Shown: positions 30,191-52,773 of the stretch, one piece after another | How the letters are laid out: each line of letters starts with the position of its first letter | Position numbering within the stretch: position 1 is the stretch's first letter | Assembly: GCA_017694425.1 (NCBI GenBank) | Contig: JADIMX010000078.1 | Coordinates: 1,351-65,350, forward strand | Direction: 5' to 3' | DNA length: 64,000 bases | Source: Candidatus Fimicola merdigallinarum | GTDB taxonomy: Bacteria; Bacillota; Clostridia; Lachnospirales; Anaerotignaceae | The notes under the pieces: generated by a model | Told to the model about the DNA's origin: nothing | Databases searched by the model: none | Seen by the model: the letters and a program-made list of their open reading frames with translations, nothing else | Program-made: the position numbers and the translations under genes

Positions 30191-30451
30191 TTACTTAATT
30201 TCAAGTCCTGCTAATTTTGCCATTTCGATTATAGAAGCTTTAGAAACTTTTTTTCCTTTATAATCGATAAGTTCGTCCATACTTCCTGTAAATATGTCAG
30301 CAGGTTCATATTTTTTAAGGACTATTTTCTCGTCATCAACAAAAATTTCAAGTGCATCTTTCTCGTTGATGTTAAGATTTCTTCTGAGCTCGATAGGTAA
30401 TACAACTCTTCCAAGTTCGTCAACCTTTCTTACAATCCCAGTTGATTTCAT
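30191..30451 (-). CDS. abrB: AbrB-family transition-state regulator
   Basis: Begins MKSTGIVRKVDELGRVVLPIELRRNLNI, a SpoVT/AbrB swapped-hairpin domain. 86 aa. Confidence 0.9.
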   Translation of the reverse strand: MKSTGIVRKVDELGRVVLPIELRRNLNINEKDALEIFVDDEKIVLKKYEPADIFTGSMDELIDYKGKKVSKASIIEMAKLAGLEIK

Positions 30452-33759: not shown

Positions 33760-34024
33760 TCTGTGCTAGCCGGGGCGGTAGTGGTGCCCTGTACTCTCAA
33801 TCCACTATAGTGAGGGTGATGCCTACTCTAGGCTTTTCAGGTTAGAGTCTGCCCTTTTAAGATGGCGTTGAAGACTGAGTCTTGTGCAACAGCAACCTGT
33901 GAACCGTGTCAGGTCCGGAAGGAAGCAGCACTAAACAGCCCCTGTTGTGTGCCGCAAGGTCGCTTAGTCTGAGTTGTCGAGACTGGTAACGTCTGGTTTG
34001 GACTGTCGAAAGTAGGTGCACAGA
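33760..34024 (+). ncRNA. ffs: Signal recognition particle RNA, long (Bacillus/Clostridium) type
   Basis: The universal domain IV motif GTCAGGTCCGGAAGGAAGCAGC is present. The 5' TCTGTGC pairs with 3' GCACAGA. The location immediately downstream of tadA is conserved in Firmicutes. Ends are approximate. Confidence 0.85.
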
Positions 34025-44677: not shown

Positions 44678-44761
44678 GTGGATATGGTGGAATTGGCAGA
44701 CACGCAAGATTCAGATTCTTGTCACCTTTCGGTGGTGCAGGTTCAAGTCCTGTTATCCACA
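44678..44761 (+). tRNA. tRNA-Leu (anticodon CAG)
   Basis: Acceptor GTGGATA/TATCCAC. D-arm GGTGGAATTGGCAGACAC. Anticodon stem-loop CAAGA-TTCAGAT-TCTTG. Long variable arm, T-arm GGTTCAAGTCC. CCA is not encoded. Confidence 0.9.
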
Positions 44762-44866: not shown

Positions 44867-45319
44867 ATGGGTATAATAGATAAATTAGGTGGAAGTTTAG
44901 TAAACGGTGCAATGGGCAATATGAGTGAGGTTTCTTTAGATAACCTTATAAAAGAATATGGCGACTATATTATGGCTGATGAGGAGATAAAAACTGGTTT
45001 TAAATTAATTCGTGATGTTATGATTATAACTGATAAACGACTTATTGAGTTTGACAAACAAGGGGCTACTGGTCAGAAAATGCGTGTAAAATCTATATAC
45101 CTTGAGTCTATTGTAGATGTTACTGTTGAAACAGCTGGTTTCGGTGTTGATGATAGCGAGCTTACTATAACTTATATAACTTCACCTTATTACAAGGTTT
45201 CTGGTGGGGCAAGTGTTAGTGATAAAACCTTTGAATTCCCTAAAAGCTTTGATGTAGTTGGTCTTTATAGACTTCTTCAGGAGATAGCTTATAAAAATCA
45301 TATAAAGATTAACGGTTAA
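44867..45319 (+). CDS. Bacterial PH-domain (YokE-like) protein
   Basis: ATG behind GGGAGGA. The LIRDVMIITDKRLIEFDKQG pattern resembles bacterial PH (bPH) domains. Confidence 0.55.
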   Translation: MGIIDKLGGSLVNGAMGNMSEVSLDNLIKEYGDYIMADEEIKTGFKLIRDVMIITDKRLIEFDKQGATGQKMRVKSIYLESIVDVTVETAGFGVDDSELTITYITSPYYKVSGGASVSDKTFEFPKSFDVVGLYRLLQEIAYKNHIKING

Positions 45320-45503
45320 TAGATTTAAATTTTTGGAGCTATCTTTCGGTAGCTCTTTTCTATTTTTATTTAAAAAGATATTTTTAAAATCATTTAGAAT
45401 ATGATATACTATACATTAGCTTAAAATGTACGAGGAGGAAATTATAAGTTATTAAAAATATAGATAAATATACCTAAAAGTGATATGCTGTGTTTATAAG
45501 GAA

Positions 45504-46691
45504 ATGAGGACGAAGAAATTGTTAAAGAGTTACAAAACGGAAATTGACCCAACCTTGGAACAAATACAAAAAATCAATAGAACAGTAGGTACTTGCCGTT
45601 TTGTGTATAACTTTTATTTGGCTCATAATCAAGAGATTTATAAAAAAGAAAAGAAATTTATATCTGGTATGGATTTCTCAAAATGGTTAAACAATGTTTA
45701 TTTACAAGAAAATCCTGAATATAAATGGGTAAAAGATGTCAGTTCAAAATCCATAAAGCAAAGTATTATGAACGCCGAAAGAGCATTTAAACAATTTTTC
45801 AAAGGTAAAACCAAATTTCCTAAATTCAAGAAAAAAAGCAAATCAGACGTAAAAATGTATTTTGTAAAAACAGATTCTAAAACAATCATACAATGCGAAA
45901 GACATAGGATTAAAATACCAACCCTTGGCTGGGTAAAGATAAAAGAAAAAGGTTATATCCCTACAGACTCAAGCACTTATACAATTAAAAGTGGAACTAT
46001 TTCCTGTAAAGAAGAAAGATATTATGTTTCAGTTTTGGTCGAACAACCGACACCCCAGAACCAACAGTTAAAAAATTTTGGGTTAGGAATTGATTTAGGT
46101 ATCAAGGACTTTGCAGTTGTAAGCAATGGAATTGTAAAGAAAAACATCAACAAAACAGCAAGATTAAGGAAATTAGAAAAACAATTAAAACGAAAACAAA
46201 GATGCCTTTCGAAGAAATACGAAAGTGCAAAAAAACATAGAAAAAATAAGAAAGGAGAAGCTACTCGACAGAATATCCAAAAGCAGTTATTAATGGTACA
46301 AAGACTTCATCACAGAATTGAAAATATTCGTACAGATTATATCAATAAATGTGTAAGTGAGATAGTGAAAACCAAGCCATCTTATATTACTATTGAAGAT
46401 TTGAACGTATCTGGAATGATGAAGAACCGGCATCTTTCTAAAGCAGTTGCTTCACAGAAATTTTATGAATTTAGAATGAAACTGGAAGCAAAATGCAAAG
46501 AATATGGAATTGAATTGAGAATTGTAGACAGATGGTATCCATCTAGTAAGCTTTGCAATAAATGTGGTCGTATTAAGAAAGACTTAAAGCTTTCAGACAG
46601 AGAATATGTATGCCAATGTGGATATCATTCAGACAGAGATTATAATGCAAGTCTTAATTTACGAGATGCCATATCCTACAAAGTAGCATAA
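45504..46691 (+). CDS. tnpB: TnpB (OrfB) RNA-guided DNA endonuclease
   Basis: 395 aa. N-terminal KTEIDPT opening. RuvC-I GIDLGIKDFAV, RuvC-II ITIEDLNVSGM, zinc ribbon CNKCG..x..CQCG, and RuvC-III DRDYNASLNL. Confidence 0.9.
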   Translation: MRTKKLLKSYKTEIDPTLEQIQKINRTVGTCRFVYNFYLAHNQEIYKKEKKFISGMDFSKWLNNVYLQENPEYKWVKDVSSKSIKQSIMNAERAFKQFFKGKTKFPKFKKKSKSDVKMYFVKTDSKTIIQCERHRIKIPTLGWVKIKEKGYIPTDSSTYTIKSGTISCKEERYYVSVLVEQPTPQNQQLKNFGLGIDLGIKDFAVVSNGIVKKNINKTARLRKLEKQLKRKQRCLSKKYESAKKHRKNKKGEATRQNIQKQLLMVQRLHHRIENIRTDYINKCVSEIVKTKPSYITIEDLNVSGMMKNRHLSKAVASQKFYEFRMKLEAKCKEYGIELRIVDRWYPSSKLCNKCGRIKKDLKLSDREYVCQCGYHSDRDYNASLNLRDAISYKVA

Positions 46692-46870
46692 GCAAGCGTT
46701 TGTAGGTATGTACCGATGGCTAGTCGGGAATTGACGACTGTGGAGTGTACAAGAACTTGTGAGTAGTATCTGGATTTATCCAGTACGAAAGCATACACGA
46801 CGAAGCAGTAAGAAATGTCCGTAAGGACTTTCAACCTCTCGATATGGATATATATGTCTATATTTTGAGT
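46570..46870 (+). ncRNA. Candidate omega RNA (reRNA) scaffold spanning the tnpB 3' end and element right end
   Basis: The block is GC-richer and self-complementary. Stems: CCTACAAA(46675-82)/TTTGTAGG(46699-706), CCGA(46713-16)/TCGG(46724-27), CTGGA(46770-74)/TCCAG(46779-83), and GAAA-GTCC(46812-20)/GGAC-TTTC(46825-32). The position matches known TnpB omega RNAs. The ends are not determined. Confidence 0.45.
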
Positions 46871-46883
46871 AGCAGGAAAAAAG

Positions 46884-48698
46884 ATGTCTTTAAACAGACA
46901 GGAAAAAATAAGAAACTTTTGTATTGTTGCACATATAGACCACGGTAAGTCTACATTGGCTGACCGTCTTATACAGAAAACAGGTCTTTTGACTGAAAGA
47001 GAAATGCAAGAACAGGTTCTTGACAATATGGACCTTGAAAGAGAAAGAGGAATTACAATAAAAGCTCAGGCTGTACGTCTTGTATATAAGGCTTCTGACG
47101 GGGAGGAGTATGTATTTAACCTTATAGATACACCGGGACACGTTGACTTTAATTACGAGGTTTCAAGAAGTCTTGCCGCCTGTGAGGGTGCTATACTTAT
47201 TGTAGATGCTGCACAGGGTGTAGAGGCACAGACTTTAGCAAACGTGTATCTTGCTATAGATAATAACCTTGAAATATTACCAGTTATAAATAAAATAGAC
47301 CTTCCAAGTGCTGACCCAGAAATGGCTAAAAATGAAATAGAGGACATTATAGGTATACCTGCCGAAGATGCCCCTATGATTTCTGCTAAAAACGGTATCA
47401 ACATTGAAGATGTTTTAGAGAGAATAGTTACAGACATTCCAGCTCCTAAAGGTGATGAGAATGCTCCGTTAAAAGCACTTGTATTCGACTCAGTTTATGA
47501 CCCTTATAAAGGTGTTATAGTTATTATGCGTGTCTTTGACGGTACTATTAAAAAAGGTACAAAGGTAAGAATGATGGCCACAAAGAAAGAATTTGAGGTT
47601 GTTGAAACTGGTTTCTTTGGCCCAGGTAGATTTATACCTTGTGATGAGCTTAAAGCTGGTGACGTTGGATACTTTACTGCAAGTATTAAAAATGTTGCTG
47701 ACACTCGTGTAGGTGATACTGTAACAGAGGTTAATAATCCTACACCTGAACCACTTCCAGGGTATAAAAAAGTTAATCCTATGGTTTACTGTGGTATTTT
47801 CCCAACTGACGGCTCAAAATATCCAGACCTTAGAGATGCCCTTGAGAAACTTCAGTTAAACGACGCATCACTTTTCTTCGAGCCTGAAACATCTGTAGCT
47901 TTAGGTTTCGGATTTAGATGTGGTTTCTTAGGACTTCTTCACCTTGAAATTGTTCAAGAAAGACTTGAAAGAGAGTATAACTTTGATGTAGTTACAACTG
48001 CACCTAGCGTTATATATAAGGTATACCTTACAGACGGTACAAGTATGGAAATATCAAATCCAAGTAATATGCCTGACCCAGTTAGAATTGAATATATGGA
48101 AGAACCTATTGTTCGTGCTGAGATTATGCTACCTAAAGACTATATAGGTACAATTATGGAGCTTTGTCAGCAAAGACGAGGTGAGTATATAAGTATGGAG
48201 TATCTTGACGATATAAGAGCTAGACTTATATATGAAATACCATTAAATGAGATTATATATGACTTCTTTGATGTTTTAAAATCAAGAAGTAGAGGATATG
48301 CTTCATTCGATTACTCATTAATAGGATATAAAAGGTCAGACCTTACAAAACTTGATATTCTTGTTAATCGTGAGGTTGTTGACGCCCTTTCATTTATCGT
48401 TCATACTTCATCAGCTGTTGAAAGAGGTAGAAAGATATGTGAAAAACTTAAAAAAGAAATTCCAAGACAGCTTTTTGAAATACCTATTCAGGCTGCTATC
48501 GGTAGCAAGATTATTGCTAGGGAAACTGTAAGTGCTATGAGAAAAGACGTACTTGCTAAATGTTACGGTGGTGACATTTCCCGTAAGAGAAAACTTCTTG
48601 AAAAACAGAAAGAAGGTAAAAAGAGAATGCGTCAGATTGGTAGCGTAGAAGTGCCACAGTCTGCATTTATGAGTGTTCTTAAACTTGAAGAAGAATAA
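46884..48698 (+). CDS. lepA: Elongation factor 4
   Basis: Contains [21 protein letters not shown] and DTPGHVDF. The C-terminal LepA domain ends ...[12 protein letters not shown]. Confidence 0.97.
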
Positions 48699-48703
48699 TA
48701 TTA

Positions 48704-48731
48704 GGCGACGTGATATTCACGTCGCTTTTTG
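48704..48731 (+). terminator. Rho-independent terminator of lepA
   Basis: GCGACGTG/CACGTCGC stem followed by a T-run. Confidence 0.85.
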
Positions 48732-48738
48732 TGTATAA

Positions 48739-48997
48739 AATATAGATTTAGTTAATTCATATCCTGATATTACAGATGAAGAGAAGGATATATTAAGGTA
48801 TATAGCTGAAAGTGGTAAACCTCAGTCTGTTAACAGTATAAAGTATAGAATAGGTATTACAGAGTATAAGACAAGAAATACTATACGTAATTTAGAGAAA
48901 AAGATTGATTATAAAAATGGGAAATGGTCCATCAACTAAGTATATGATATCCATTAATAGCATTGATTATTTAGCATCATTACAGTTGATAAAATAA
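48739..48997 (+). pseudogene. Remnant of the C-terminal winged-helix domain of a larger regulator/ATPase-type protein, frameshifted
   Basis: An open frame with no start codon reads PDITDEEKDILRYIAESGKPQSVNSIKYRIGITEYKTRNTIRNLEKK. The +1 frame continues RLIIKMGNGPSTKYMIS, the typical end of such wHTH domains. The shift lies at an A-run near 48898-48902. Confidence 0.4.
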
Positions 48998-49569
48998 AAA
49001 GTGAAATAATTAAAAGATAACTTGTGATTATCTTATGAAAATCTTTTGATTTTTAATATATTTTAAGGTGATGTATATATTACATCATTTTTTTTATATA
49101 TTGTGGTTACAAGAATATGAGTTATATTTAACATAAATTGTTTTTGTGAATATATAACAATTTGTTATACATAATATAATAATAAATTTGTGATAAAAAA
49201 CAACAAAAATATTACGTTAAAACTAAGGAATAAACAGCTATTTTTATTCGTTCAAAACGAACATTACAAAAAATGTATATATTTTAATGCAATACAAGTG
49301 TAAAAATGTGTAAATTAACAACAAATTTAACATATTTTTATGCCTATATACACTAATATATCTAAAAAACTCTATAGATTGACAGGGGTTATCTTGAATG
49401 ATAGTATTTAATTTAATAATTTATAGGAAGTGGTTTGACATAATTTTATAATATCTTTTTTGCATAAAATTGGTGTGAACTTTTGTGTTGCATATTATTT
49501 TTTGGCATTATAACGATTACCATTTATTCTATAAATTTTGATTTAAAATATCAAAAGGAGGTAAGTGTG

Positions 49570-50512
<943 letters not shown>

Positions 50513-50529
50513 TAAGGAGGCGTTTTTTT

Positions 50530-51012
50530 ATGTTGACGCTGAATTGGAATATAATTTGGATATTTGTAAACTTAATAGTTTTATATCTTCTTCTTAATAA
50601 GTTTTTATTTGGGAGAGTTCAAGATATTCTTAAGCAGAGAGAGGAACTTATAAACAGTAGCATTGAAAGTGCTAAGGCTAATGAGGAAATAGCTAAGGAA
50701 AATGTAGTTAAAGCACAGGCTATGGTTGACAATGCCAAAAAAGAGGCAGAAGAAAAAGCTAATAGTATAATCGAAAAGGCTAAGAAAGAAGAAAAAGAAC
50801 GTATAGAAGCATCTGAAAATGAGGCTAGACGTATTTTAAAAGAAACAAGAGAAATAGCAGAAATAGAGAGAAATAGAATTCTTGCCGAGGCCAAAGACGA
50901 TATGGTTACTATGGCTATGCTTACAGCTAGAAAAGCTGTTGGTACTATGGATAATGAGGAAAAAGAGAGAGAGCTTTTTGAAGATTTGCTTAAGAAGGTG
51001 GGAGATGCGTGA
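50530..51012 (+). CDS. atpF: F0F1 ATP synthase subunit b
   Basis: One N-terminal TM helix followed by a long charged helix. 160 aa. Confidence 0.9.
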   Translation: MLTLNWNIIWIFVNLIVLYLLLNKFLFGRVQDILKQREELINSSIESAKANEEIAKENVVKAQAMVDNAKKEAEEKANSIIEKAKKEEKERIEASENEARRILKETREIAEIERNRILAEAKDDMVTMAMLTARKAVGTMDNEEKERELFEDLLKKVGDA

Positions 51013-52773
51013 TGGCAGAGAACTTTACAAAGAAATTTTTTGAGGAAAATCGTATTTTGAAGGCAACTATTCATTATGCAAAAAGACCTTCTGACAACGA
51101 TTTAAATCAGTTAAAGAATATATTATTAAAAACATATGATGCAACAGAGGTAATATTAGAAGAACGCCAGAATGATGAAATTCTCGGTGGTTATTTATTA
51201 CAGGTAGGGGATAAAGTATTTGACAATACTTATAAACTTACATTTGATACTCTTGAGCGTCAGCTTAGAAAAGAAAAGGGTAAAGAGGACATTATATCAA
51301 TAATGAAAAGTGATATAAATGGCTTTGAAGGTGAGTTTTCCATTGAGGAAGGTGGATACATACACAGTATTCACGATGGAATAGTTTCTGTAAAAGGCAT
51401 TTCTAAAGCTATGTATGGAGAGATTGTTCTTTTTGAAAATGGTATTAAAGGATTAGTTCAGAACATAGATGAAAGCGAAGTTTTATGTATCGTTCTCGGT
51501 GACGAGGAAACTTTAACAGAGGGAAATCGTGTTATAAGAACTAAAAGAAGAGCCGGTATACCAGTAGGTGAGGGATTACTTGGTCGAGTTGTAGATGCTT
51601 TAGGTGCGCCTATTGACGGTAAAGGCGAGATTAAAACTGATGACTGGTACACACTTGAGAGAAAAGCTCCTAGTGTAATTGATAGACAGTCAGTAAATGT
51701 ACCTTTACAGACAGGTATTATGTCTATTGACTCTATGTTCCCTATCGGTAGAGGTCAGAGAGAGCTTATAATCGGTGATAGACAGACAGGTAAAACTTCT
51801 ATTGCCATTGACACTATAATAAATCAGAAAAATGAAGATGTTATCTGTGTTTACGTTGCTATTGGTCAGAAGGCTTCTACAATAGCACAGGTTATATCAA
51901 ACCTTAAAAAACACAAAGCTTTAGACTATACAGTTGTTGTTACAGCAAATGCTAGTGCACCGGCATCATTACAGTATCTTGCACCATACTCAGGTACTGC
52001 TATTGCAGAGTACTTTATGGAAAAAGGTAAAGATGTTCTTATTGTATATGATGATTTATCAAAACACGCAGTAGCTTATCGTGCTTTATCATTACTTTTA
52101 GAGCGTTCTCCAGGACGTGAGGCTTACCCAGGTGACGTATTCTATCTTCACTCAAGACTTTTAGAGCGTTCTTGCCGTCTTGATGAGGCTCACGGTGGCG
52201 GTTCTATAACAGCTTTACCTATAATTGAAACTCAGGCCGGCGACGTTTCAGCTTATATACCTACAAACGTTATATCTATTACAGATGGTCAGATTTTCCT
52301 TGAAAGTGACTTATTCTATGAGGGTATCCGTCCTGCTGTAAACGTAGGTCTTTCTGTATCTCGTGTTGGTGGTGCAGCACAGACAAAGGCTATAAAAGCG
52401 GTTAGCGGTACACTTCGTATTGACTTAGCACAGTATAAAGAGATTGAGTCATTCTCACAGTTTAGCTCTGAGCTTGACGCAAGTACAGTACAGCAGATAG
52501 AATACGGAAAACAGCTTACAGAATTACTTATACAGCCTTTATATAGACCTAAATCATTATCAAAACAGGTGGTTTCACTTTGCATTGGTACAAGCAAAAA
52601 ACTTTTAGGTATACCTAAGGAGAAAGTAAGTAAATTTGTTGAAGATTTCTATGAATATTTAGAAGAAACTTCTGCTGATATGATTAATGATATATTAACT
52701 ACTAAAAAGTTTACTGATGAACAGAAACAGGAAGTTTTATCTAAGTTAGAAGAATATAAGAAGGAGCAGGGAT

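Follow-up and report, generated by a model that had tools for sequence, protein, structure and literature searches.

The DNA analysed here is a 64,000-nt stretch of Candidatus Fimicola merdigallinarum (contig JADIMX010000078.1), which we refer to in its full length as the window. Immediately upstream of the lepA gene it carries a 1438-bp insertion sequence (45438–46875), which is very probably a non-autonomous member of the IS607 family that has lost its transposase gene, tnpA, by deletion and that retains an apparently intact TnpB nuclease together with a guide-RNA scaffold of the RAGATH-18 type. An earlier reading of the letters alone (the original prediction) had proposed an intact module of TnpB and its cognate guide RNA without TnpA at this place. 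Judged from sequence comparison, the module is borne out by the residues of TnpB and by a RAGATH-18 match with strong covariation. Its assignment to the IS200/IS605 family, with a Y1 transposase as the partner, has to be replaced by one to the IS607 type: a relative with a 93% identical TnpB (locus L043) encodes a TnpA of 212 aa with MerR and Resolvase Pfam matches.

The 395-aa product of the tnpB open reading frame (ORF) matched HTH_OrfB_IS605 (PF12323, residues 7–51), OrfB_IS605 (PF01385, residues 176–309) and Cas12f1-like_TNB (PF07282, residues 320–386) above the Pfam cut-offs, and scored 315 bits, against a cut-off of 100, with the NCBIfam model of the RNA-guided endonuclease TnpB family (guided_TnpB, NF040570). 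We aligned it with the TnpB of ISFba1 (PDB 8iaz; 67.5% identity over 391 aa, E = 1e-168, 565 bits), for which RNA-guided cleavage with AGGAG as the target-adjacent motif (TAM) has been shown biochemically (PMC11061315). D197 of GIDLG, E298 of TIEDLN and D379, the second aspartate of DRDYNA (from residue 377), aligned with D194, E290 and D371 of ISFba1, the catalytic residues of that protein (PMC11061315). The single catalytic mismatch to the PDB entry arises because the solved structure carries an engineered D371A substitution. The zinc ligands C351 and C354 (CNKC, 351–354) and C370 and C372 (CQC, 370–372) were present as well. Among the residues that contact the RNA in ISFba1, 13 of 16 were identical and two more were changed from arginine to lysine; all five contacts to the non-target strand were kept, as were four of the six TAM contacts (N63, N64, K82 and K85), while N121 and N122 correspond to T123 and D124, beside a one-residue indel where the alignment is uncertain. 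The catalytic set that the original prediction had read from the motifs is thus complete, with no inactivating substitution relative to a solved and biochemically active homologue, and the domain architecture, the RuvC D-E-D triad and the zinc ligands of TnpB are all intact.

A search for homologues yielded at least 8000 TnpB sequences at E ≤ 1e-50. An exact-protein look-up found neither the 395-aa nor the 390-aa form of this TnpB on record, and its close relatives were obtained through the homology search. Against these relatives, the ratio of nonsynonymous to synonymous substitution rates (dN/dS) of tnpB was 0.15–0.31 in comparisons spanning 11–53 substitutions, and the gene was free of stop codons in five close copies. 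These values indicate that the close copies are under purifying selection. The start codon deserves a comment. ATG 45504 has a poorly spaced ribosome-binding site; the alternatives are GTG 45480 (403 aa) and TTG 45519 (390 aa), the latter preceded by a well-spaced GAGGA. In L043 the GGAGGA that serves as ribosome-binding site for the TTG start includes the position at which a G-to-T change has created ATG 45504 in the window. Translation may therefore really begin at TTG 45519, which is probably the ancestral one on this comparison and is also the start chosen by gene callers.

The RNA part of the module was identified by an Rfam scan of the whole window, which gave a full-length match to RAGATH-18 (RF03064; 73 bits, gathering score 44.9) downstream of tnpB, the sole Rfam match in 45200–47100 even at E ≤ 1. 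IS607-type TnpBs with a length of about 390 aa have been shown to use a guide RNA (reRNA) built around RAGATH-18 (Ren et al. 2024, Cell Res, PMC11061315). In the RNA bound by ISFba1 TnpB, a 5′ flank that begins 13 nt past the stop codon is followed by RAGATH-18 (about 73 nt), by a 3′ flank of 64 nt and finally by the guide (PMC11061315). In the window the predicted scaffold measures about 185 nt. The GC content was 0.41–0.44 over 46650–46850, as compared with about 0.20–0.36 in the adjoining sequence. The segment 46670–46895 folded with –60.2 kcal/mol (z = –3.06), and none of 200 shuffled sequences folded as well; the fold of 46692–46875 alone was weaker (z = –2.3), the gain to –3.06 coming with the inclusion of the guide and of the 5′ half of a stem at the stop codon. 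The original prediction had pointed to a GC-richer, self-complementary block here. The block is real, whereas its limits required correction: it begins about 15 nt, not about 100 nt, inside the ORF, and ends at 46875, not at about 46840.

To evaluate the structure across relatives, we aligned 25 scaffolds with MAFFT, each including 24 nt of coding sequence, and mapped onto the alignment a structure composed of the Rfam consensus for the core, the minimum-free-energy fold of the window sequence for the 3′ flank and the published pseudoknot. Standard base pairs occupied 89.2% of the cells, as against 75.0 ± 0.8% after shuffling of columns and 31–47% when the partners were slid by 1–3 columns. 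Compensatory changes, affecting both sides of a pair, occurred in 28 of the 55 modelled base pairs, and the covariation score was 0.396 versus 0.186 for the shuffles, none of which (0/500) reached the observed value. RNAalifold, run independently, reported compensatory changes in 12 of its 20 predicted pairs. Conserved motifs on either side of the RAGATH-18 core, extending to the right end of the element, were seen in alignments of 24–28 copies. Among close copies the scaffolds were 96.7–100% identical. From these comparisons the scaffold is placed essentially downstream of the stop codon, with one half of one predicted stem inside the ORF. Two of the relatives (L005 and L009) have extra hairpins inserted in the first internal loop of RAGATH-18, and the stem-loop at 46812–46832 (alignment columns 177–198) is variable; the scaffold therefore tolerates modular insertions.

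The stem straddling the tnpB stop codon, P0, had also been noted in the original prediction and recurs throughout the family. All but one of the 25 loci have a P0-type stem of 6–9 bp in equivalent register, its 5′ half beginning 14–18 nt before the stop codon and its 3′ half adjoining the conserved AUGUAC, with sequences that differ between loci (for instance, ACTTATCA/TGATAAGT, ATATACC/GGTATAT and ATCTATCA/TGGTAGAT). Its mean length was 7.5 bp, compared with 4.97 ± 0.22 bp when the 3′ half was shuffled, and 5 of 9 pairs changed on both sides. In the MAFFT alignment P0 is partly out of register between clades, so that fixed columns give 78% pairing; the anchored analysis is the better test. 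For ISFba1, the reRNA is reported not to depend on the coding sequence, and the 21 nt at its 5′ end that correspond to this region are disordered and can be dispensed with in vitro (PMC11061315). The stem probably matters in the precursor transcript only. A covarying stem across the tnpB stop codon may be a new observation.

The ends of the element were established by comparison with an empty site and with relatives. Contigs that encode exactly the LepA of the window, which is identical to MBO8434493.1 of Candidatus Fimicola merdigallinarum (Lachnospiraceae; known from a metagenome-assembled genome), fall into two classes: occupied contigs (L001), with the bPH–tnpB–lepA arrangement of the window, and empty ones (L002). 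L002 aligned to window positions 45205–45441 and 46871–52698 and reads ...AGGAGGAAAAAAGATG (in a longer reading, ...AAAATGTACGAGGAGGAAAAAAGATGTCTTTAAAC) at the place where the window has the left junction ACGAGGAG|GAAATTATAAG and the right junction GAGTAGCAG|GAAAAAAGATG. Because the hexamer AGGAAA is common to both junctions, the empty site alone leaves an ambiguity of a few nucleotides. This ambiguity was removed by the alignment of 27 other copies (TnpB 53–77% identical), in which non-coding conservation stops sharply at ...TTTTGAGTAGCAG (46875) and the next base is variable; the element thus comprises 45438–46875. Conservation in these copies does not end before 46700 and runs through ...GAGTAGCAG, as the prediction of a scaffold downstream of tnpB implies.

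Both junctions have GG (45437–45438 and 46875–46876), the empty site has a single AGGAGG, and a target duplication is absent. GG is the known overlap dinucleotide of IS607 serine transposases (PMC4058570), for which integration data are also available (10.1101/2023.11.20.567912). The element is inserted inside the lepA Shine-Dalgarno sequence AGGAGG, at its GG, and the predicted TAM AGGAG forms part of the same site. Of 22 strains in the published family, 18 had 5′-AGGAG as the TAM and four had GAGGG, and a 20-nt guide was optimal for ISFba1 (PMC11061315). The predicted guide of the window element starts at G46876, covers the lepA start codon (ATG 46884) and, as a 20-mer, has no other match in the window even when up to 3 mismatches are allowed. 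The original prediction had derived the guide from the lepA leader; its origin in the flanking DNA past the right end stands, whereas it is not confined to the leader. The best inverted repeat in the element is subterminal, 23 nt long and 83% complementary (Table 1). Neither the element nor tnpB has a second copy elsewhere in the window. The exact 32-nt right end had zero matches in a scan of metagenome contigs. A scan of genome contigs gave only relatives of 53–77% identity; the representative genome of the source species either lacks the element or was missed.

The absence of tnpA from the window, another claim of the original prediction, was examined in two ways. We used as tblastn queries the tnpA-position ORFs of three IS607 elements (L019, L023 and L024; 199–204 aa, that of L019 being 204 aa), which were assigned as serine-recombinase TnpA by position and sequence; they gave no match in the 64-kb window (all E > 2). 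A domain scan of 20 window ORFs of 84–256 aa revealed neither Y1_Tnp nor Resolvase. With no TnpA found in the element or the window, the element is to be regarded as a non-autonomous derivative and not as a complete IS607. Comparison with L043, the closest full-length relative (DNA about 95.6% identical to the window), suggests how this state arose. Positions 45440–45507, at the left end of the window element, share 87% identity with the left end that precedes tnpA in L043; from 45501 on, the window is again homologous to L043, beginning with the 3′ part of its tnpA. Thus, the window copy represents a 607-bp deletion of tnpA, which joins at a short AAAG/GAG repeat and keeps both element ends. 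Every stage of tnpA loss is found among relatives: an intact tnpA-position ORF in L019, L023 and L024; a C-terminal tnpA remnant in L004 and others; and no tnpA together with a short left end in L005–L008, L010, L011 and L026. For a related IS607 system, excision is known to need no more than about 40 bp of the left end and 60 bp of the right end, and TnpA_S makes precise donor joints (10.1101/2023.11.20.567912). As the window element retains both of its ends, its mobilisation in trans is plausible.

Table 1. Positions of the element, of its predicted parts and of adjoining features in the window
Feature	Position	Strand	Basis or remark
Promoter-like site TTTAAA-16-TATACT with upstream TG (extended –10)	45383..45410	+	Consensus scan; also in empty-site contig L002
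Predicted left-flank TAM AGGAG (lepA Shine-Dalgarno)	45433..45437	+	L002 empty site; published family TAM 5′-AGGAG (PMC11061315)
Crossover dinucleotide GG	G45437 + G45438	+	IS607 GG overlap (PMC4058570)
Left end, 66 bp, fused directly to tnpB by the tnpA deletion	45438..45503	+	87% identity to L043 left end
Left arm of subterminal inverted repeat	45450-45472		Inverted-repeat search (I1)
tnpB, 395 aa from ATG	45504..46691	+	ORF, profile matches, residue alignment, dN/dS; stop codon 46689-46691
Predicted stem P0 straddling the tnpB stop codon	46675..46706	+	CCTACAAA (46675-46682) pairs with TTTGTAGG (46699-46706)
Predicted guide-RNA (omega/reRNA) scaffold, ending in GAGUAGCAG	46692..46875	+	Rfam RF03064, alignments, covariation, published ISFba1 layout
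Predicted 5′ hairpin, loop GGCUA	46713-46717 / 46723-46727 (46713-46727)		Scaffold
Predicted pseudoknot, loop GCUA with UAGC	46719-46722 with 46870-46873		Corresponds to PK2 of the ISFba1 structure
RAGATH-18 core	46737-46811	+	Rfam RF03064; stems within 46737-46809
Optional stem-loop of the 3′ flank	46812-46832		Scaffold; in 8/25 copies only
Predicted 3′ stem-loop	46836-46869		Scaffold
Right arm of subterminal inverted repeat (right end)	46849..46871	+	Inverted-repeat search
Predicted 20-nt guide GAAAAAAGATGTCTTTAAAC, host DNA, lepA –8 to +12	46876..46895	+	Conservation end at 46875, empty-site junction
lepA (elongation factor 4), ribosome-binding site split by the insertion	46884..48698	+	ORF, LepA identity

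Several further observations concern the number and the surroundings of the copies. L043 lies on a 57-kb contig (ERZ28615941) directly after a terminase large-subunit gene and is therefore probably in a phage or prophage. The window and L001, a contig from another sample, differed at 12 of 9815 positions, 11 of them inside tnpB and 10 within 127 bp (region 45980–46271); this clustering suggests an exchange (gene conversion) between element copies, or copies that were mixed during assembly. A further contig, L044 (ERZ24773368), encodes a TnpB 97% identical to that of the window and has the left flank of the window (the bPH gene and the lepA promoter), while its right end abuts thiI, reading ...GCAG|GTAAAAATGG, with the start codon 7 nt past the right end. 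This may reflect a second copy, located upstream of thiI, that underwent recombination with the one at lepA; alternatively, the contig is a chimera of the assembly. Two TnpBs 95–97% identical to that of the window (P0002 and P0005) are encoded on 1437-bp contigs, about the size of the element, which is typical of a collapsed multi-copy repeat. Taken together, the differences from L001, L044 and the element-sized contigs suggest that more than one copy exists in these populations; they are compatible with several copies and fall short of proof of current mobility.

The window itself has two ordinary housekeeping RNAs, a tRNA-Leu(CAG) (gene at 44678–44761, some 675 nt before the element) and a bacterial signal recognition particle (SRP) RNA of the large type (33761–34023), and a small ORF on the minus strand (30194–30451) has a MazE-antitoxin (AbrB/SpoVT-type) domain.

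The position of the element before lepA has parallels in the family. At 23 of 28 genome junctions, three of which represent one orthologous site in Bacillus, the right end is followed 6–12 nt further on by the start codon of an ORF that is 50 aa or longer, and almost every one of these ORFs is longer than 100 aa. When IMG/VR viral contigs were scanned with the right-end pattern of 21 nt (TGTCYATATTTTGAGTAGCAG), 46 matches were obtained, three of them within a single viral genome of 148 kb. This independent set comprises 29 distinct junctions: 14 have such a start 5–13 nt downstream, and at three more an ATG 9–12 nt downstream escaped the count because a GTG occurs at the junction itself. At random positions in the same loci, the frequency of such starts was only 7.2%. 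Left flanks ended in AGGAG in 7 of the 12 copies inspected and in close variants, such as CGGAG, GGGAG and AAGGG, in the rest. The start codons at the right ends, the AGGAG-like left flanks and the empty site at lepA indicate that the TAM and integration motif of this clade coincides with the Shine-Dalgarno sequence and that its elements habitually sit between ribosome-binding site and start codon. This placement may be a new observation.

These observations lead us to a tentative idea, for which we would claim less than even odds: the clade may use the Shine-Dalgarno consensus (AGGAG plus the GG core) both as integration motif and as TAM, lodging systematically before host and phage start codons, and the stop-codon stem may link the termination of tnpB translation to the folding or 5′ processing of the guide RNA. 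Ren et al. mention 'AG-rich cognate TAMs' next to the left end and no more (PMC11061315). In the papers searched we found no statement linking the TAM of an IS607 TnpB to Shine-Dalgarno, ribosome-binding-site or start-codon positions, which is no proof of novelty, and none on a stop-codon stem that couples tnpB termination to guide-RNA maturation. If the idea is right, such an element makes use of the promoter of its host, its natural guide always comes from a region of translation initiation, and the gene behind it retains only a weakened ribosome-binding site (AGCAG-N). Should both the ribosome-binding-site preference and the stop-codon stem turn out to be general and to have a function, they would bear on target choice and guide-RNA maturation and would be relevant to the engineering of compact editors from this clade.

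At lepA, the insertion cuts the Shine-Dalgarno sequence from AGGAGGA to AGGA. A terminator-like hairpin (45335–45356) closes the upstream bPH gene, and the promoter-like site that follows it upstream of the insertion is present in the empty allele too; it is therefore probably the native lepA promoter, as far as a consensus scan can tell. A second promoter-like site (TGGATA-16-TATAAT, 46619–46646; 10 of 12 matches) lies in the 3′ end of tnpB, its –10 box coinciding with the DYNA codons of RuvC-III; from it, the guide RNA and lepA could be transcribed without tnpB. A scan for terminator-like sites between the scaffold and lepA found none. With the lepA promoter upstream and no such site before lepA, tnpB, the scaffold and lepA are probably co-transcribed. 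The insertion parts lepA from its promoter, and expression of the gene probably depends on read-through of the element.

On the analogy of the IS607/RAGATH-18 family, we infer the following mode of action. Transcription from the lepA promoter, a left-end promoter or both would run through tnpB and the scaffold into lepA, and TnpB would bind the scaffold RNA, to which some 20 nt of adjoining lepA sequence are attached as the guide. The occupied locus would be immune: the right end supplies AGCAG in place of the TAM AGGAG, and given the single-mismatch TAM data for ISFba1 (PMC11061315), the occupied site should be protected. Excision by the serine-recombinase TnpA of a full-length copy, which if precise would leave the donor joint AGGAGGAAAAAAG, or the entry of an empty allele would place AGGAG beside the target. 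TnpB would then cut, and homologous repair from an occupied copy would restore the element. With both of its ends kept, the element should stay mobilisable in trans.

A number of points weigh against this account of a mobilisable element with a working nuclease. A source of TnpA was found within the 64-kb window neither by tblastn nor by the domain scan. Two of the six TAM-contacting residues are changed (T123 and D124), and the exact TAM could therefore differ. The thiI-flanked copy, L044, which carries the left flank of the window, is on a 3.7-kb contig of 2.3x coverage and may be an assembly chimera. Finally, the same insertion occurs in at least four samples, which would also fit a copy that no longer moves.

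This last point would also be expected if the element were fixed and domesticated, with the TnpB–RNA pair or the transcribed scaffold serving the host, for example by tuning lepA transcription or translation. Such a role, which we consider unlikely, would agree with the clean removal of tnpA, with the position of the element, which cuts lepA off from its promoter and most of the Shine-Dalgarno sequence, no terminator-like site having been found between scaffold and lepA, and with the purifying selection on tnpB, although selfish maintenance alone accounts for such selection. The conspecific strain with an identical LepA and no insertion shows, however, that the insertion is polymorphic rather than fixed. 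Moreover, both transposon ends are intact, near-identical copies lie beside other genes and in a phage-like contig, and RuvC is intact, unlike that of the known domesticated, nuclease-dead TnpB relatives. Domestication of the TldR type was rejected, as all three RuvC catalytic residues are present.

That the ORF and the RNA are recent remnants, unexpressed or inactive and merely not decayed yet, appears more doubtful still. The lack of a transposase in the window, the poor spacing of the ribosome-binding site at the ATG start and the two TAM-contact differences from ISFba1 would suit a silent relic, whereas TTG 45519 has its well-spaced GAGGA, dN/dS stays low over the substitutions compared, with no stop codons in five copies, all catalytic residues and zinc ligands and 13 of 16 RNA contacts are kept, and the scaffolds of close copies have hardly diverged, with their pairs maintained. 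An IS200/IS605 element that has lost a Y1 (HUH) transposase and has its guide RNA overlapping the 3′ end of tnpB is highly improbable and was rejected: the Pfam names common with IS605 OrfB, the second-best NCBIfam match (IS200_TnpB, NF038281, 292.7 bits) and the one stem half inside the ORF would point that way, but the NF038281 score is below the model cut-off of 425, no Y1_Tnp was found in the 20 window ORFs scanned, relatives carry serine-recombinase TnpAs and not Y1, the junctions have the IS607 GG, RAGATH-18 RNA has been reported with IS607 TnpBs only (PMC11061315), the TAM is AGGAG and not of the TTGAT type, and ISDra2 TnpB scored only 168 bits as against 565 for ISFba1. We therefore retain the interpretation of the locus as a tnpA-deleted IS607 element with an intact TnpB and its scaffold. 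The locus is a cleanly delimited, transposase-less TnpB–guide RNA element, whose exact empty site, TAM, guide and deletion junction allow a confident annotation instead of the bare word 'transposase'.

The systems to which the element belongs are known and abundant in gut Bacillota: 10,258 RAGATH-18/TnpB loci have been reported, of which about 80% carry TnpA and about 20% do not (PMC11061315). The RNA scaffold is already an Rfam family with a published function (PMC11061315), and the locus adds a member to the IS607 TnpB/RAGATH-18 kind, the system itself having been described in 2024. It resembles ISFba1 in the length of its protein (about 390 aa), whose D/E/D residues and zinc ligands are shared by the two, in a scaffold after the stop codon that consists of a 5′ flank of about 50 nt, RAGATH-18 and a 64-nt 3′ flank ending in G, in the pseudoknot between a loop and the 3′ end (GGCUA with UAGCA) and in the AGGAG beside the left end. 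It differs in the absence of tnpA, in the TAM pocket, where N121/N122 align with T123/D124, and in the conserved stem between the last tnpB codons and the scaffold start, given that the ISFba1 reRNA is called independent of the coding sequence. With full-length IS607 elements (IS607 and the CboIStron of Zedaveinyte et al.) it has in common the GG crossover dinucleotide without target duplication, subterminal inverted repeats, tnpB and guide RNA at the right end and the logic of homing and retention, whereas it has neither tnpA nor a group I intron, its left end is only 66 bp long and fused to tnpB, and its TAM/target motif is AGGAG(G) where CboIStron has TGGG. The IS200/IS605 TnpB–omega RNA of ISDra2 is likewise an RNA-guided RuvC nuclease with a guide from the DNA past the right end, a TAM in the left flank and a role in transposon maintenance, but it is paired with a Y1 transposase, most of its omega RNA lies over the 3′ coding region of tnpB, and it has a T-rich TAM. 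The nuclease-dead TnpB-like repressors, TldR, also combine the TnpB fold with a guide RNA, without a transposase and beside the expression signals of a host gene; in contrast to them, the element described here has an intact RuvC, transposon ends and an empty-site polymorphism.

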